A DNA stretch of 64,000 nt from a virus. Below, in pieces: positions 1-29,897 of this stretch (within the stretch, counting starts at the first letter, position 1; the number at the start of each line of letters is the position of its first letter). The notes beneath the pieces are model-generated. The model was not told the DNA's origin. It did not search any database and saw only the letters and a program-made list of their open reading frames with translations. Location: IMG/VR virus record IMGVR_UViG_3300007609_000005, positions 68,460 to 132,459 of that record; one strand, written 5' to 3'. Position numbers and translations under genes: made by a program.

Positions 1-1
1 A

Positions 2-907
2 CAATCTGAACTGGGTGATGATGGTAGAATAGAACGTAGTGGTGAATTTCCAGAGATAAAGACGGGGTGGGGCTGGTTCATAGACATCAAGAACCATATT
101 CCACAGATAAAGGAAAAAATAGAGGAAATAGATTGGAAGCCTGAGAGGTTTAAACAGAATGCACTAAATTGGGCAGATAACATTGAATGGGATTGGTCCA
201 TATCAAGAGAACGGTATTATGGTATTCCGATACCAGGTGAAGAAAGAATGACATTTGACACTTGGTTCATCTCTTCCCTATCGCCACAACTGGCTTGGAA
301 CTCATATACGGGTGATACTAGCCTAGATATCCCTATATTTGATATGAGATACCAAGGACATGATATTATTCGAACATGGGCTTTCTATACGATTGCAATG
401 TCATATTTTTTAAACAATCAAATACCTTGGAAGACACTTATGATAACAGGACATACACTTGATGGTAAGGGAGATAAGTTCTCCAAGTCATCTGGAAATG
501 CCACTGATCCAAGACCATATATCGATAGACACAAACCATCAGGAATAAGATGGTGGGCATGTTCAACAACCTTGGGGAATGATATAAAACTAGATGAGCC
601 AAAGATGAAAATGGGTTGGCGTATTGAGAACAAACTTCTAAACGCCAAGAAATTCATAAAAATGCAAATAGATAATGAGTGGATAGGTGAAGATGAAAGC
701 CTTATGACGGAATATTTAGACCATAAGGATCGGATACTTGAACATTTCGAAAATTATGAACTGGATAAGGCAACTGATCACATATACACATTCTTTTGGA
801 ATATATTCTGTGATAAGTGGATAGAGGCATCCAAGAAAAACCCAACTTCAATAACATTGAATAATATAATTACTGACTTCGAAAAAATAATGAATATCAT
901 ATTATGA
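2..907 (+). CDS. valS: valyl-tRNA synthetase, 5'-truncated by the window edge; minimal form apparently lacking the CP1 editing domain
   Basis: Frame open from nt 2. Motifs DWSISRERYYGIPIP, TFDTWFISS, QGHDIIRTWAFYT, KFSKS and FFWNIFCDKWIEASK. Confidence 0.88.
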   Translation, partial: QSELGDDGRIERSGEFPEIKTGWGWFIDIKNHIPQIKEKIEEIDWKPERFKQNALNWADNIEWDWSISRERYYGIPIPGEERMTFDTWFISSLSPQLAWNSYTGDTSLDIPIFDMRYQGHDIIRTWAFYTIAMSYFLNNQIPWKTLMITGHTLDGKGDKFSKSSGNATDPRPYIDRHKPSGIRWWACSTTLGNDIKLDEPKMKMGWRIENKLLNAKKFIKMQIDNEWIGEDESLMTEYLDHKDRILEHFENYELDKATDHIYTFFWNIFCDKWIEASKKNPTSITLNNIITDFEKIMNIIL

Positions 908-18080: not shown

Positions 18081-18545
18081 ATGAAACCATTGACAATGTA
18101 TATTATTTGTGCGTTATTAATACTTGCAATAATTATAACTGTTATATCATATCAATCCAAAATTAATTCACTGAATAAAGAATATCATGGGTCAATATCA
18201 ACTGTGAAAAACTACTTAAAAGACCAACGATCATTAAAGGTAGGTGATGTCGGTATTATTCGTAACTATAAATTGGAAGTCACATCCACCGGTGAAAATT
18301 TTAAAGTTGACTTTGAAGTTATAATAACTGATGTGAGTGAGAAAGATGCAAAAATTCAAATAACTGATATGTCAAGTGTTTATTCATATGCAAAAGACCC
18401 ATCAAACCATCAAAGCATAATAAACTTTGTTGATAAAACTTGGGTATCAAAATCTACAATAAGTCCAATTATCGGAGCAAAATCATTAAGAAACGATAAG
18501 ATAGAAAAGTTATTAAACGAATACGAAGATAAAGAAAATGATTAA
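18081..18545 (+). CDS. membrane-anchored hypothetical protein with C-terminal tag
   Basis: N-terminal TM helix; LKVGD; SLRNDKIEKLLNE. Confidence 0.7.
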   Translation: MKPLTMYIICALLILAIIITVISYQSKINSLNKEYHGSISTVKNYLKDQRSLKVGDVGIIRNYKLEVTSTGENFKVDFEVIITDVSEKDAKIQITDMSSVYSYAKDPSNHQSIINFVDKTWVSKSTISPIIGAKSLRNDKIEKLLNEYEDKEND

Positions 18546-26595: not shown

Positions 26596-28812
26596 CTATA
26601 ATTCCAACATAAAAACACTCCCTTCTTCTTTGAATAAATAGTTCTGATATGCATCTTCTGCCAGAAATGGTGTCATTGGTGCTAAGACTCTCAACATCTT
26701 ATCTACACAATTCTTCAAAACATATTGACAATTCCGCCTCTCATTACTATCAAGATCATATTCATATAGGAATGATTTTGTTGCATCGTCAAGGTAGAAA
26801 CTCGACAACTCAGATACCCATGTAACCAATTCTCTTAGTACGAATTTAAATTCATACTCTTCATAATATTTCATAGAATCAACATACATTTTATTTGTCA
26901 TATCCAATACTTTCTTACCTCTATCAGATAAGTCGAGTGTATGGTCAACATCATAGCCATACATATTACCTAATAAGTATTTCATTGTATTTCGTAACTT
27001 GAAGTAATAACTAGCACATGTCTTTAATACATCATCACCGAGTGTTACATCATTCCCATAACTTGTCTGCGCCACCCACAACCTCAACACATCAGTATTG
27101 AACTTATCTTGTACATCTTTTGGATCAACAACATTCTTCATTGATTTACTCATCTTATGACCATTTTGATCAAGAACAAACCCATGTGTAAGAACCTTTT
27201 TATAAGGGGCTTTACCCATCGATGCAACAGATGTTAAGAGAGATGATTGGTACCACCCTCTGAACTGATCAGAGCCTTCGAGGTAGAGGTCTGAAACTTT
27301 ACCATCCATAACAGACAACCAAGACGACCCAGAGTCAAACCACACATCCAACGTATAAGTACATTTTTCCAACCCCATATTATGAAATTCAGTTGGTAGG
27401 AGTTCTTTATCTGTCATAGAAAACCACACATCTGAACCAAGTTCATTAAATAACTTATATAGATGTTTGTAAACTTTATCATCAGTGAATGGGTTTCCGT
27501 CTTTTAAGAAAACTGCCAACGGAAACCCCCATTGTCTTTGCCGGGATAAGCACCAACAATCTCTTCCCCTCAACATATTTGTTAGGCGATTACGCCACCT
27601 TTCTTCGGTCATATCAACACCATCCAATGCCTCTAATGCATCACCACTAAGTCCTTTTAAATCCAAGAAAAATTGTTCGGTCAATCGATAATAAACTGGC
27701 TTTTTTGTTCGCCAATCATGTGGATATGAGTGTGTGTATTCTTCTTTCTTTACCAGCATATCACATTTATCCATATCATCAACTACTTTAACAGAATGAT
27801 CAAGACAAAATGTTCCATCAACCCGACCCCCATTATCAGTAAGATCAACACCACTTAACCCATTCTTCTTACACACTTCGTAATCATCATCACCATGTGC
27901 AGGACACAAATGCACAAGTCCAGTACCACTATCCGCCCTTACAAATTTATCACATAGAACAACACCACGATTGCCAGTAAGTGGATTAGTGTATTCAAGA
28001 CCTTCTAATTTCTCACCCAAATACTCATCAACATCAACACCACTCAATAAATCACATTCTTGATGAAGAACGTAAGTTGTTTGGTTAACTGAAACTTCCT
28101 TATATGATAATTTGGGATTCACACAAACCGCCATATTACCAAGAACAGTCCATGGTTGTGTTGTCCAACATACAAGTTTTCTACCATCATCCAAGTCTAA
28201 CGTAAAATATGCAGATACATCAGTTCGATCTTTATATTCCAACTCAGACTCTGCAAGTACAGTTCTCGTTGATGGTGAATAATGCACTGGTCGAGTGTCC
28301 AGATAAACAAGACCCTTATTCAATAAATCATACAGAAGTCCCAATTGTTTAACTTCATATTCCTTGGAATTTGTCTGATAGTGATTATCCCAATCACCGA
28401 ACACGCCAAGAGATCTGAATGTAGCCATCTGTTTATCCACAAATGAATTTGCCAACTTGTGACACTCTTCCCTTAGTTCGAGTTGTGGTAACCTTTTTTT
28501 AACTTTTTTCTGTACGGCAAGTTCAGTTGGGAGTCCATGACAATCCCACCCGGGTCTGTAATCGACTTTGTACCCACTCATCATTTTATACTTTACAACC
28601 ATATCTTTCAGTACCTTGTTTAGTACATGGCCCACGTGAAGATCACCGTTGGCATATGGTGGTCCATCGTGAAGTAAGAATTCGGTTGAGTTCTTACTAT
28701 TCCTGTTATGTAGAACATCTTTCCACAGTTCTACCATTTCAGGTTCTTTCTTTTTATGTTCCGACCTTTGTGTAAAAGTCGTATCTGGCATATTTAGTTT
28801 TTTTGTTTTCAT
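26596..28812 (-). CDS. ileS: isoleucyl-tRNA synthetase (type 1), C-terminally shortened
   Basis: HDGPPYANGDLHVGH, PGWDCHGLP, WTTQPWT, GTGLVH, WCLSRQRQWG, EGSDQFRGW, KMSKS; start MKTKKLNMP. Confidence 0.97.
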   Translation of the reverse strand: MKTKKLNMPDTTFTQRSEHKKKEPEMVELWKDVLHNRNSKNSTEFLLHDGPPYANGDLHVGHVLNKVLKDMVVKYKMMSGYKVDYRPGWDCHGLPTELAVQKKVKKRLPQLELREECHKLANSFVDKQMATFRSLGVFGDWDNHYQTNSKEYEVKQLGLLYDLLNKGLVYLDTRPVHYSPSTRTVLAESELEYKDRTDVSAYFTLDLDDGRKLVCWTTQPWTVLGNMAVCVNPKLSYKEVSVNQTTYVLHQECDLLSGVDVDEYLGEKLEGLEYTNPLTGNRGVVLCDKFVRADSGTGLVHLCPAHGDDDYEVCKKNGLSGVDLTDNGGRVDGTFCLDHSVKVVDDMDKCDMLVKKEEYTHSYPHDWRTKKPVYYRLTEQFFLDLKGLSGDALEALDGVDMTEERWRNRLTNMLRGRDCWCLSRQRQWGFPLAVFLKDGNPFTDDKVYKHLYKLFNELGSDVWFSMTDKELLPTEFHNMGLEKCTYTLDVWFDSGSSWLSVMDGKVSDLYLEGSDQFRGWYQSSLLTSVASMGKAPYKKVLTHGFVLDQNGHKMSKSMKNVVDPKDVQDKFNTDVLRLWVAQTSYGNDVTLGDDVLKTCASYYFKLRNTMKYLLGNMYGYDVDHTLDLSDRGKKVLDMTNKMYVDSMKYYEEYEFKFVLRELVTWVSELSSFYLDDATKSFLYEYDLDSNERRNCQYVLKNCVDKMLRVLAPMTPFLAEDAYQNYLFKEEGSVFMLEL

Positions 28813-28845
28813 AATTTTAAATTTTGATTTTTGATTTTTTAAAGA

Positions 28846-28878
28846 ATAAAAAACCCAAGGACTTTTGATCCTTGGGTT
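28846..28878 (-). terminator. intrinsic terminator of the ileS attenuator
   Basis: AACCCAAGGA-TCAAAAG-TCCTTGGGTT followed by TTTTATT on the - strand. Confidence 0.85.
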
Positions 28879-28908
28879 GAAAATGGATGGTATGCACAAT
28901 AATTCACA

Positions 28909-28968
28909 TCACCATTGGAATATCCAAGGAGTTAATCTGTGAATTATAATTATACATGTGCTTCTCAT
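28909..28968 (-). CDS. ileS attenuator leader peptide MRSTCIIIIHRLTPWIFQW
   Basis: Four tandem Ile codons ATA ATT ATA ATT (28942-28953); internal TCCTTGG is complementary to the terminator 5' arm. Confidence 0.8.
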   Translation of the reverse strand: MRSTCIIIIHRLTPWIFQW

Positions 28969-28973
28969 ATGTT

Positions 28974-29897
28974 TTATATATTCTCCTTTAGTCTTTGTTT
29001 TCTAAACTTTTTTCTAAGTTTCATCCCATCGTTATAATTCAACTCTTTGATTACTCTCTTCCCACTCCTTGGATGGCTTATATATCTGGAAATGGTACTC
29101 TTACTAATCCCCGTACTTTCAGTCATTTCTTTACGTGTTCGGTAAACACCCATTAATTTATCATCTTCATAATGGGCAATCAATCTATCCATCTTCTTAC
29201 GGGTGTCTCCCGATTTCCATTTAAACCCTCTAGCAGAAACCCTTTGCCCTCTACAACACATACTTATATCGTTTTGTGCCGAGTTACTTAATCCTAATAA
29301 ATCAACGGCTTGTTTAGGACTTCTGAATTTATTAAGAACATTCCCCCTTCTATCCAATTGTACTACGGACTTACTACCTCTGAAGTTATAACCCCTCATT
29401 GGGTCCATTCGATAATTCTTATCATTCGTGAAATAACTACCATCCTTTGCAGAACGTTTTCGGTTCCCTATGAGCAATGATATTTCTGATTGATTATACC
29501 CGGTTTTCAAAGAACATTCAACTTGTGATCCATACTTACCCAACAACTTATTTTGGTGGTTGAAATGATAAACATTTTTATGTGGTTTTCTGAAATACTC
29601 CACATCAGTTGGTTTCTTTTTAACAACAACCAAATTTTCTTTTGTGTAATCAGTATTGCCACTTTTAAGGACTACACGTTCGTCATCCTTTAATCTCCGA
29701 TCATTGTACATTTCAAAAAACAAATTCTTTTTATATTGAAGTCTCCAATCATCAAGCAAAAATGGCGTTGCTATTTTATATTCATCTTCATCTTTAATAC
29801 GTTTCCATCTACCACCCGATTTCCACTTAGAATATAATTTCCCATCTTCGGTTAATTTGAAAACTTTCCTTGCACTTTCTCTATAATAAGTAGTCAT
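28974..29897 (-). CDS. NUMOD1-repeat homing-endonuclease-like DNA-binding protein
   Basis: Three NUMOD1-like repeats (e.g. VVQLDRRGNVLNKFRS...ISMCCRG..SARGFKWK); degenerate HNH-like DYTKENL; start MTTYYRES after TATATTTG at 29923-29930. Confidence 0.7.
   Translation of the reverse strand: MTTYYRESARKVFKLTEDGKLYSKWKSGGRWKRIKDEDEYKIATPFLLDDWRLQYKKNLFFEMYNDRRLKDDERVVLKSGNTDYTKENLVVVKKKPTDVEYFRKPHKNVYHFNHQNKLLGKYGSQVECSLKTGYNQSEISLLIGNRKRSAKDGSYFTNDKNYRMDPMRGYNFRGSKSVVQLDRRGNVLNKFRSPKQAVDLLGLSNSAQNDISMCCRGQRVSARGFKWKSGDTRKKMDRLIAHYEDDKLMGVYRTRKEMTESTGISKSTISRYISHPRSGKRVIKELNYNDGMKLRKKFRKQRLKENI

Follow-up and report, generated by a model that had tools for sequence, protein, structure and literature searches.

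A likely ribosome-mediated isoleucine attenuator upstream of a phage isoleucyl-tRNA synthetase gene

We analysed a 64,000-nt stretch of viral DNA (the window; positions 68,460 to 132,459 of IMG/VR record IMGVR_UViG_3300007609_000005) whose minus strand carries an isoleucyl-tRNA synthetase gene, ileS. The gene product scored 690.6 bits against the NCBIfam ileS equivalog, above the cut-off of 621.4. Upstream of ileS lies a short leader ORF with a run of Ile codons, followed by a hairpin and a T tract, and only 6 nt separate the leader ATG from the end of a homing-endonuclease-like gene. The features of the locus are listed in Table 1. Both the 19-codon ORF with its ATA-ATT-ATA-ATT run and the terminator with T tract ahead of the ileS ATG had been described in an initial annotation, and both were confirmed.

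Table 1. Positions of the leader, pairing elements and genes of the ileS locus, numbered within the window
Feature	Position	Strand	Basis or remark
ATATATAA box, promoter-like	28974..28981	(-)	sequence; 5 nt upstream of leader ATG
Leader ORF, 19 codons + TGA	28909..28968	(-)	reads MRSTCIIIIHRLTPWIFQW and stop; ATG 28968, TGA 28911-28909
Putative sensing codons ATA ATT ATA ATT (four consecutive Ile)	28942..28953	(-)	sequence
P1 5' strand, Ile codons and next four nucleotides	28938..28957	(-)	minimum-energy folds, covariation
Element A, TCCTTGG, putative antiterminator strand	28924..28930	(-)	leader codons 13-15
Element B, CCAATGG, decoy	28912..28918	(-)	resembles terminator 5' arm; holds A in apical hairpin P2 (predicted)
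P1 3' strand	28892..28908	(-)	immediately 3' of leader stop codon
P3, alternative hairpin ATGGTGATG...CATACCAT	28882..28916	(-)	predicted to form once P1 is opened; shortens the A:C-closed loop
Intrinsic terminator hairpin, AACCCAAGGA / TCCTTGGGTT	28852..28878	(-)	11 pairs, 5 G-C, loop 5
Element C, CCAAGGA, in terminator 5' arm	28875-28869	(-)	sequence
Element D, terminator 3' arm (TCCTTGGGTT)	within 28852..28878	(-)	sequence
T-rich terminator tail, TTTTATT	28845..28851	(-)	sequence
A-rich spacer, terminator to ileS	28813..28844	(-)	no promoter motif
ileS, isoleucyl-tRNA synthetase, 738 aa	26596..28812	(-)	ATG 28812; regulated gene in the proposed model

The initial annotation had also placed a 'late-type' box 6 nt upstream of the leader. 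The box is indeed a recurrent gene-start motif, but the distance is 5 nt and nothing shows it to be 'late'. ATATATA[AC] occurs at 68 sites in the 132-kb record, 28 of which have the ATG of an ORF of at least 60 aa within 45 nt, and in 13 of these 28 the ATG follows 3–5 nt downstream. The ATATATAA box also precedes the glnS and valS leaders, and its role as a promoter is inferred rather than shown. No Shine-Dalgarno sequence is found at the usual distance before the leader (an AAGGAG ends 14 nt upstream of the ATG), so that translation would have to start in the Bacteroidota style or on a leaderless RNA.

The device, comprising leader, elements A and B and terminator, precedes ileS in all eight distinct related phage loci that were fetched (L001, L007–L011, L013 and L015; L012 duplicates L011), which encode IleRS proteins of 61–79% identity and make nine loci with the window. 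It is complete in 8/8 although the upstream genes differ, indicating that its conservation goes with ileS rather than with whatever gene lies upstream. It was absent from L014, where IleRS identity is 39%. The search for Ile-rich leaders upstream of ileS in relatives, suggested at the outset, thus returned one at every distinct locus (9/9 including the window), and a hairpin with a T tract stands between leader and ileS in each. From the terminator T run to the ileS start there are 25–37 nt (35 nt in the window) of A-rich, unstructured spacer. Neither TAnnTTTG nor ATATATA was found in the terminator–ileS spacer of any of the nine loci, and transcripts of ileS would therefore be expected to run through the terminator. 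Because the nine leaders share ancestry, these counts are not independent events.

In the eight relatives, the leader ORF spans 18–21 codons, with IIII at codons 6–9 or 7–10, and the in-frame ATG and stop are retained across all nine leaders. Every leader uses both ATA and ATT but never ATC in the Ile run (pooled counts 18, 18 and 0), against a genome-wide Ile codon usage of.47 ATA,.35 ATT and.18 ATC. The only variable sites of the Ile block are three third positions (chance 0.018), which never change to ATG. Sensing of both Ile isoacceptors by this mixture is compatible with the data, though not shown. The phage also has a tRNA(CAT) gene (18354-18430 in G000) that may be a tRNA-Ile2. Outside IIII the peptide is poorly conserved, apart from a PW retained in 8/9 leaders. 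That PW and the constant ORF length are what would be expected if the ORF encoded a functional hydrophobic micro-protein whose transcript is merely closed by the terminator. We give this idea next to no credence, since little of the peptide beyond IIII is kept, each sister leader described below is rich in the amino acid of the synthetase it precedes, and TCCTTGG is invariant as nucleotides in 9/9 loci, including L010, where the reading frame after the Ile run differs. Element A starts 11 nt after the Ile run in eight loci and 10 nt after it in L010.

In the predicted minimum-energy fold of the free leader RNA of the window, the helix P1 joins the Ile codons to the stretch that follows the leader stop codon. 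This helix had been overlooked in the initial annotation. The hairpin noted there, formed by ATGGTGATG and CATACCAT (P3), is real, with an equivalent in 9/9 loci, but folds of the window locus show it solely when a ribosome occupies the Ile codons. The 121-nt leader folded with a z-score of -4.74, none of 200 shuffles folding equally well, and z-scores across the nine loci ranged from -4.55 to -7.32. Compensatory stem changes, which the initial annotation had proposed looking for, were found in the P1 core: five of its nine pairs are changed on both sides, and 87% of cells are paired. The P1 covariation score was 0.216, compared with 0.155 in shuffles (0/500 reached the observed value) and 0.057–0.099 with slid partners.

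RNAalifold run on the MAFFT alignment (A3) detected the apical stem and a portion of the terminator but no more, owing to misaligned 3' strands. A covariance-model alignment (A4) repaired P1 but not the register of the terminator 3' arm, so the 80.7% pairing obtained for helix 4 understates the terminator, which forms an unbroken hairpin in each sequence. The apical P2 stem, UUGG/CCAA, is present in 9/9 sequences; its closing pair is UA in four and CG in two sequences in A3, and standard in only 3/9 in A4 (UG in two, AU in one, other in six). Terminator stem bases vary (AACCC, ACCCC, AGCCC, AGUCC) with matching 3' arms, around a core, CCAAGGA, that is fixed across loci and reads CCAGGGA in L009. 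The sequence of element A is that of the core of the terminator 3' arm. The alternative pairing of TCCTTGG with CCAAGGA inferred from the window alone was borne out as possible in 9/9 loci; it comprises only 7 bp and is mutually exclusive with the terminator. As A and C are invariant, save for a single A-to-G substitution in L009 that still allows a wobble pair, the A:C pairing has no covariation support.

We modelled a ribosome as a mask from -15 to +13 nt, a textbook figure for the footprint. With the mask on the Ile codons and the RNA ending at C, A:C was the minimum-energy fold in 9/9 loci, stalled-state energies being -14.5 to -17.9 kcal/mol with C versus -8.4 to -12.2 kcal/mol without it. 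With the full RNA and the ribosome either at the stop codon, which in the window lies 12 nt past the end of element A, or absent, the terminator formed in 9/9. Folding with and without masked Ile codons therefore gave the predicted switch between antiterminator and terminator. When the full-length RNA was folded with the Ile-codon mask, the terminator was still the minimum-energy fold in 9/9. Its greater stability at equilibrium means that an antitermination switch must be kinetic. In the nascent RNA up to C without a ribosome, A:C was predicted in 4/9 loci, and the default state may thus be leaky.

These energetics bear on the output of the device. If the translated leader senses Ile but a stall favours termination, or acts on the translation or stability of ileS mRNA, then a terminator that is thermodynamically dominant in every state and a short A:C pairing would cause no difficulty, and transcription–translation coupling is unknown for the presumed host group. 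Such an output is nevertheless very unlikely in our judgement. The stalled folds free A and yield A:C in 9/9 loci, while a ribosome at the stop covers both A and B; the hairpin carries a canonical T tract, and the ileS start lies beyond it at a distance of 25–37 nt in an unstructured A-rich spacer. Moreover, lower IleRS production under a shortage of Ile-tRNA would have no evident rationale.

P1 is a well-supported helix, the A and C cores are invariant as RNA whatever the reading frame, and leader translation has not been shown. The leader might therefore be a translation-independent structured RNA that binds IleRS, uncharged tRNA-Ile or another factor, the ORF being incidental to an AU-rich helix. 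A small chance remains that this is so, but such an RNA would not account for an Ile block that changes at third positions only and remains in the frame set by a conserved ATG and stop, or for the fixed 10–11 nt between Ile run and A. Leaders enriched in the cognate amino acid precede six other synthetase genes, a feature that binding of a protein or tRNA would not call for. There is also no match to the T-box or any other Rfam family: no family reached its gathering score over the 64-kb window, and a search of positions 28700-29100 gave nine weak matches, the best of which reached 23.4 bits where the gathering score is 99, with T-box not among them. The device works like the curated Rfam amino-acid leaders but matches none of those sequence families.

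The combination of Ile run, A and C is rare. As a pattern it matched seven stretches in 2.9 million IMG/VR contigs, all seven being these ileS leaders; in 185,579 species genomes it gave three chance matches in unrelated sequence and no genuine case. A looser DNA pattern matched at least 119 stretches, and among those listed only three had an Ile run, all at known loci. Megablast of the locus against GenBank phages gave no match. A single-protein IleRS scan of IMG/VR likewise returned none, although an alignment-based scan did find relatives; a scan with a 50%-identity IleRS group (A2) yielded no further contigs. Roughly 80 phage-type IleRS relatives (P0003-P0085) at 46–76% identity were also identified. 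Within the 132,459-bp record, both strands together contain 2,706 ATG-started ORFs of 8–35 codons, 28 of which have at least four identical residues in succession. A terminator follows within 120 nt in only two of the 28, the ileS leader and the NNNN leader of asnS.

IIII occurs in seven of these 28 ORFs, so that IIII short ORFs are not rare here (7 in 132 kb), and the endonuclease-like gene ends close to the leader ATG. A plain terminator of that gene, with a chance small ORF in an AT-rich spacer, could be read from these two facts. We regard this explanation as extremely improbable and already contradicted, given that leader and terminator stand before ileS in eight distinct relatives with differing upstream genes, that no other IMG/VR stretch matched the combined pattern, and that covariation is accompanied by third-position-only variation.

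Cellular ileS loci served as controls. From at least 598 metagenome IleRS matches, 80 with 35–40% identity were kept; eight were left out because their upstream sequence was too short, leaving 72 with at least 300 nt upstream. None of these 72 cellular-type loci had an IIII short ORF upstream of ileS. In the phylum of the Chitinophagaceae genome G005, an Ile-rich short ORF was found at 3/30 ileS loci, one of them an IIII ORF without a terminator. A host origin of the device was considered and rejected, as no terminator lay within 160 nt upstream of ileS at any of the 30 loci of this phylum.

In our view the leader is likely to act by ribosome-mediated (leader-peptide) transcription attenuation, reporting the speed of Ile-codon decoding and setting phage IleRS expression. 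This reading rests on sequence anatomy, conservation, P1 covariation and predicted folds, without RNA or experimental data. A short ORF rich in cognate codons stands just before the regulated gene; an intrinsic terminator separates the two, with no promoter motif after it; a segment can pair with the terminator 5' arm to the exclusion of the terminator, although without covariation; and in the masked folds the geometry is such that a stall on Ile frees A and a ribosome at the stop blocks it. Every computable test named in the initial annotation, which had proposed an isoleucine-sensing attenuator, was favourable to that proposal.

In the proposed mechanism, transcription would start at or just past the ATATATAA box, and the 19-codon leader would be translated immediately. 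With ample charged tRNA-Ile, the ribosome would reach the stop codon and cover elements A and B; without a ribosome, the leader hairpin P1/P2 would form. In either case C would remain free and C:D would pair, and the polymerase would halt at the T tract, some 35 nt short of ileS. When Ile-tRNA-Ile is scarce, the ribosome would stall on the four Ile codons and thereby open P1, whose 5' strand consists of these codons, and the released segment after the stop would refold as P3. Lying 10–11 nt past the last Ile codon, A would be just outside the stalled ribosome and could pair with C before D is transcribed, so that the terminator would be pre-empted and the polymerase would continue into ileS. 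That the leader is translated, that this translation is coupled to transcription, where the transcript starts, and in which direction and how strongly the device responds are all inferred. The phage thus probably makes IleRS mainly when ribosomes decode Ile codons slowly. The earlier statement that the enzyme is made only when charged tRNA-Ile is scarce was too absolute, as an attenuator modulates and the terminator is more stable at equilibrium.

In the trpL, ilvGMEDA and ilvBN leaders, the regulatory codons lie in one strand of a leader helix, a stall opens that helix, and the antiterminator pre-empts a stabler terminator. Trp-type attenuators terminate when the ribosome is at the stop codon or absent altogether. 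In the proposed model, the phage ileS leader has the same codon-in-helix logic and the same three ribosome states. The topology differs: the trp antiterminator is made by pairing of the terminator 5' arm with the 3' strand of the first hairpin, whereas in the phage leader that arm would pair with element A, the 5' strand of the apical hairpin, enclosing the decoy B and P3. The target also differs, being a synthetase rather than a biosynthetic operon as in trp and ilv.

Synthetase genes behind cognate leader ORFs are known (PMC1262725). Such cases, pheM among them, share with the phage leader the short ORF rich in cognate codons, the terminator and the alternative pairing. The phage device differs in being viral, in its ileS target, in lacking the usual Shine-Dalgarno sequence and any sequence relation, and in being one of a set for at least six amino acids. 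In Firmicutes and Actinobacteria, T-box ileS leaders sense tRNA-Ile charging through a terminator or sequestor switch (PMC1262725), that is, they control the same gene in response to the same physiological signal. However, a T-box works by direct binding of uncharged tRNA and does not depend on translation, and the phage device matches no T-box model. Huge phages carry up to 15 tRNA synthetases (Al-Shayeb 2020, PMC7162821), and the main text of that article, in which 'attenuat' and 'leader' each occur 0 times, does not address synthetase regulation. A full-text literature search found no published account of such a phage ileS attenuator.

The leader is thus probably a case of classical ribosome-mediated attenuation, in a viral setting that is new, and would extend a mechanism known from bacterial textbooks to viruses as well as to ileS. 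If so, the phage would not merely contribute capacity for translation: by way of the ribosome it would detect which charged tRNA is running short during infection and respond gene by gene, and its synthetase genes would form a regulated supply system rather than cargo. The leader would also be a compact, portable, amino-acid-specific sensor, likely functional in a Bacteroidota-type host without Shine-Dalgarno sequences.

Comparable leaders precede other synthetase genes. In the same phage, the asnS leader contains NNNNHN, the leader of the glnS operon has 7 Gln among 19 residues, and the valS leader has 5 Val among 20, including VVV. In the relative G001 (508 kb), the leuS, valS and hisS leaders carry LLLL, VVVV and HFHFHF, respectively. 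The cognate-leader set spans at least six amino acids in the phage clade, and these sister leaders give the same predicted switching in folds. The G001 aspS leader (DD and a final D) was ambiguous as a cognate leader and was left out of the count. G001 also has leaders before tRNA arrays, spelled in the amino acids of those arrays. We raise as a tentative idea, with somewhat less than even chances, that the phage runs an amino-acid-resolved feedback network in which the ileS leader is one node. In such a network, the leader of each synthetase gene, and in relatives of each tRNA block, would gauge decoding speed, the limiting charging part would be supplied independently of host control, and the constant ATA/ATT mixture would cover both tRNA-Ile isoacceptors, among them the one that requires lysidine.

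In G001, nine terminator sites have a short ORF in which four of eight residues are identical. No Pfam family was detected in three other ORFs downstream of such sites, and only three sites precede synthetases. The device is not unique to ileS, a point that had been overlooked in the initial annotation.

The window makes up the right-hand half of an IMG/VR virus record of 132,459 bp (~52% complete, 33% G+C). As the initial annotation had claimed, ileS on its minus strand is preceded by an Ile-rich leader, TCCTTGG (element A) and a terminator, an arrangement that was confirmed in relatives as well. The 738-aa product exceeded the NCBIfam ileS equivalog cut-off (690.6 versus 621.4 bits). On both strands of the whole record, 2,706 ORFs start with ATG and span 8-35 codons. 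Of these, 28 contained at least four identical residues in a row (IIII in seven), and only two of these 28 had a terminator within the following 120 nt, namely the ileS leader and an NNNN ORF before asnS. The 121-nt ileS leader folded with z = -4.74, and none of 200 shuffles was as stable.

Features of the ileS locus, of related synthetase genes and of leaders before tRNA arrays. Positions are those of the window unless prefixed G000:C1 (G000, the whole record); G001 is a 508-kb relative phage.
Feature	Position	Strand	Remarks
Homing-endonuclease-like gene, 339 codons	28974-29993	minus	NUMOD1 and I-HmuI-like NUMOD domains
Stop of the 339-codon open frame	28976-28974	minus	
ATATATAA box	28981-28974	minus	
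ileS leader ORF MRSTCIIIIHRLTPWIFQW	ATG 28968, stop 28911-28909	minus	ATG 5 bases past box
Ile codons ATA ATT ATA ATT	28953-28942	minus	inside MRSTCIIIIHRLTPWIFQW
Terminator hairpin AACCCAAGGA-TCAAAAG-TCCTTGGGTT	28878-28852	minus	T-rich tail
Spacer, terminator to ileS		minus	A-rich, 35 nt
ileS, 738 aa	26596-28812, ATG 28812	minus	NCBIfam ileS equivalog
asnS leader MKSLSINNNNHNRKP	G000:C1:10252-10149, asnS ATG 10117	minus	outside window; TAtaTTTG motif, 12-bp terminator
Gln-rich leader MSQTQTHIQQLQQQFDTKG	G000:C1:377-491	plus	outside window; ATATATAA box and terminator
valS leader MNNKSENNLVVVTDIVKMLV	G000:C1:67887-68037		~420-570 nt left of window start; ATATATAA box
Minimal leuS-like gene, 426 aa	4984-6261	plus	best NCBIfam match leuS_bact, below cut-off
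G001 leader ...ISRSRSSRS...			before Ser/Arg tRNA array
G001 leader ...YIGYIAEGGYEAG...			before Glu/Tyr/Gly/Ile/Ala tRNA array
G001 leader ...HKHFSKSNKWF...			before His/Lys/Trp/Phe tRNA array

The frame upstream of the leader looks like a homing endonuclease because of its NUMOD domains, and its stop overlaps the box of the leader. Such genes directly adjoin synthetase leaders here and, in another genome (G004), before valS (L235), where the gene lies between the expected leader position and valS.

A tblastn search of GenBank phages yielded one close IleRS (63.6% identity), encoded in the 634,780-bp sequence of an uncultured phage, LR745206.1. Leader MNFNTIIIIRYSIPWSIPIG and then a terminator lie upstream of its ileS, and the gene before that leader is a 63-aa ORF, unlike the preceding gene in the window. 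An alignment-based IMG/VR scan with IleRS returned nine loci, eight of them with IleRS 61-79% identical (two sharing identical upstream sequence). All eight carried a leader of 18-21 codons with exactly four Ile codons at positions 6-9 or 7-10, an invariant TCCTTGG, a CCAA..GGA-like decoy (element B) ahead of the leader stop, and CCAAGGA (element C; CCAGGGA once) in the 5' arm of the terminator. The distance from leader stop to ileS was 79-93 nt in relatives and, from the coordinates, 96 nt in the window. No such leader device was seen at the ninth locus, whose IleRS is 39% identical. When 2.9 million viral contigs were searched for the Ile run with A and C, seven stretches matched, all of them these ileS leaders; the same pattern had three matches in 185,579 species genomes, none leader-like.

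Nine distinct leaders, those of the window and eight relatives, were then compared. The 12-nt Ile block varied at three sites only, all third codon positions and always A or T (chance of all three landing there, 0.018). It comprised 18 ATA and 18 ATT codons and no ATC or ATG, with ATC making up 18% of Ile codons in the genome. Start and stop were kept and the remaining peptide was not; in one relative (L010), the frame is shifted after the Ile run (ending SYSVLGSS) with the TCCTTGG nucleotides unchanged. Because of this third-position-only variation and the intact TCCTTGG behind a frame shift, we infer from the alignment that conservation acts on the Ile run at the coding level and on TCCTTGG at the RNA level.

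Folded singly, all nine leaders adopted the same shape (z = -4.55 to -7.32). In a long helix, P1, the Ile codons together with a few bases beyond them are paired with a segment starting at or just past the leader stop; an apical hairpin, P2, joins UUGG (element A) to CCAA (decoy B); the terminator completes the structure. Compensatory changes, proposed initially as a check on the leader structure, were indeed found in P1, a helix that the first reading had itself overlooked. In a covariance-model alignment, both partners had changed in five of the nine P1 core pairs, and 87% of cells were paired. The covariation score of the whole structure was 0.216, compared with 0.155 for column shuffles (none of 500 reached the observed value) and 0.057-0.099 for slid partners. 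One covarying pair includes the third base of Ile codon 3 (A-U in some loci, U-A in others). Element A and the core of C were invariant except for one A-to-G change in L009, with wobble retained with both partners. This invariance fits bases obliged to pair with two partners, and gives no covariation.

To model the switch, a ribosome was represented by masking its footprint (a textbook value, -15 to +13 nt relative to the A site) and the RNA was then folded. When the mask covered the Ile codons and the RNA ended at C, a 7-bp A:C helix was the minimum-energy fold in all nine leaders. Inside it lies a new hairpin, P3, built from the 3' strand that P1 has released and from sequence around the stop codon. 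Folding energies ranged from -14.5 to -17.9 kcal/mol, compared with -8.4 to -12.2 kcal/mol when C was withheld. In eight leaders element A starts 11 nt past the last Ile codon, and in L010 10 nt past it, which places it just outside the stalled ribosome. With the full RNA and the ribosome at the stop codon or absent, the terminator formed in nine of nine, so the masked folds behaved as initially predicted. Two results count against the switch. On full-length RNA, the terminator was the best fold in all nine even with the Ile codons masked, which leaves only a kinetic route to pre-emption. In addition, four of nine favoured A:C when nascent RNA reaching as far as C was folded with no ribosome. 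The trp attenuator, too, has a terminator more stable than the antiterminator that competes with it.

Conservation, coding signature, covariation and masked folds all support the first reading. The explanation that we favour, and consider quite probable, is that phage ileS is controlled by a classical transcription attenuator, ribosome-mediated and Ile-sensing, unusual in topology and belonging to a set of cognate leaders over the phage's charging genes. Our confidence stops there because RNA and functional data are lacking and the antiterminator is short and invariant. Full-text literature searches, supplements excluded, turned up no description of a phage synthetase gene controlled by leader-peptide attenuation. 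One article (PMC1262725) lists classical attenuation for pheST and as predicted for trpS and leuS in Streptomyces, and ileS under T-boxes.

The box before the leader is present, but nothing supports its description as late-type. Gene-start motifs were judged across the whole record by nearby ATGs of ORFs of at least 60 aa. TAnnTTTG, which resembles the Bacteroidetes -7 promoter element, occurred at 215 sites, 50 with an ATG within 45 nt (4-5 nt downstream in 15 of the 50); ATATATA[AC] occurred at 68, 28 with such an ATG (3-5 nt downstream in 13). The latter type precedes the ileS, glnS and valS leaders and the former that of asnS. Two motifs peaking 3-5 nt before the ATG suggest two promoter classes, and the short spacing suggests that many mRNAs may be leaderless or near-leaderless. 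Neither motif type was found between terminator and ileS in any of the nine loci.

According to Al-Shayeb et al. (PMC7162821), Bacteroidetes are the predicted hosts of the largest huge phages (over 634 kb). An IIII short ORF upstream of ileS was absent from all 72 cellular-type metagenome loci, and no terminator lay within 160 nt upstream of ileS in 30 loci from the phylum of a Chitinophagaceae-titled genome. IleRS frames in those 30 Bacteroidota-phylum loci were of a different, longer type (1,050-1,261 aa). On these three grounds, the device is, within this sample, judged not to be copied from a host-phylum ileS leader.

Cognate leaders, rich in the amino acid of their own synthetase, preceded other charging genes. 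In the asnS leader (asnS identified by TIGR00457, above cut-off), the Asn codons are complementary to AUUAUUAUU past the stop; LR745206.1 asnS follows leader MKTMTINNRNRLTDII. The operon behind the Gln-rich leader holds a HAD_SAK_2-family gene (512) and glnS (958; TIGR00440, above cut-off). The valS leader is followed by a 15-bp hairpin, whose T tail is weak, and a minimal valS (442 aa; 3' part at window 1-907), and valS in relatives follows Val leaders MKTINLNNLVVVNVSV (LR745206.1) and MNINLNIVVVSTSVRCW (G003). The leuS-like gene in the window had no leader; its ATG comes 4 nt after the end of a TAtaTTTG motif. Its orthologue in G001 (97% complete) has leader MITTMNTNLLLLADS (ending NLLLLADS) and a terminator. 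G001 also carries valS-like and hisS-like genes behind leaders ending NNVVVVNRNPVC and THFHFHFENLELGVH; its leuS-, valS- and hisS-like identities are best NCBIfam matches under cut-offs. Whether its aspS leader is cognate is ambiguous. Gln leader MNNLVQQVQQQQINLMIDWTRIG and a terminator lie ahead of four tRNA-Gln genes and glnS in G001, and its lysS comes after tRNA-Lys genes, themselves behind a Lys-rich leader. Between G001 319612 and 432061, 61 tRNA genes form arrays, several behind leaders spelled in the arrays' amino acids; four of the seven arrays listed, including the three tabulated, have a terminator ahead of the first tRNA.

In predicted folds of six further synthetase leaders, the regulatory codons lay within a leader helix. 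Few or no bases of the terminator 5' arm were paired when the ribosome was absent (0-4 nt) or stood at the stop codon (0-5 nt), leaving the arm free. Placing the ribosome on the regulatory codons engaged 4-14 nt of the arm, though only weakly in the leuS and asnS leaders.

A strong 12-bp terminator at G000:C1:42683-42709 (+) lies 26 nt before a 379-aa ORF of unknown family (ATG 42736), upstream of which no amino-acid-rich short ORF was seen. Compared with cellular synthetases, those of the phage are much shorter, with 738 aa for IleRS, 442 aa for ValRS and 426 aa for the LeuRS-like protein. The sole tRNA found in the record by ARAGORN (G000:C1:18354-18430, minus strand) has anticodon CAT and could be a tRNA-Ile2 reading ATA rather than tRNA-Met; ATA makes up 47% of the phage's Ile codons, more than either synonym.
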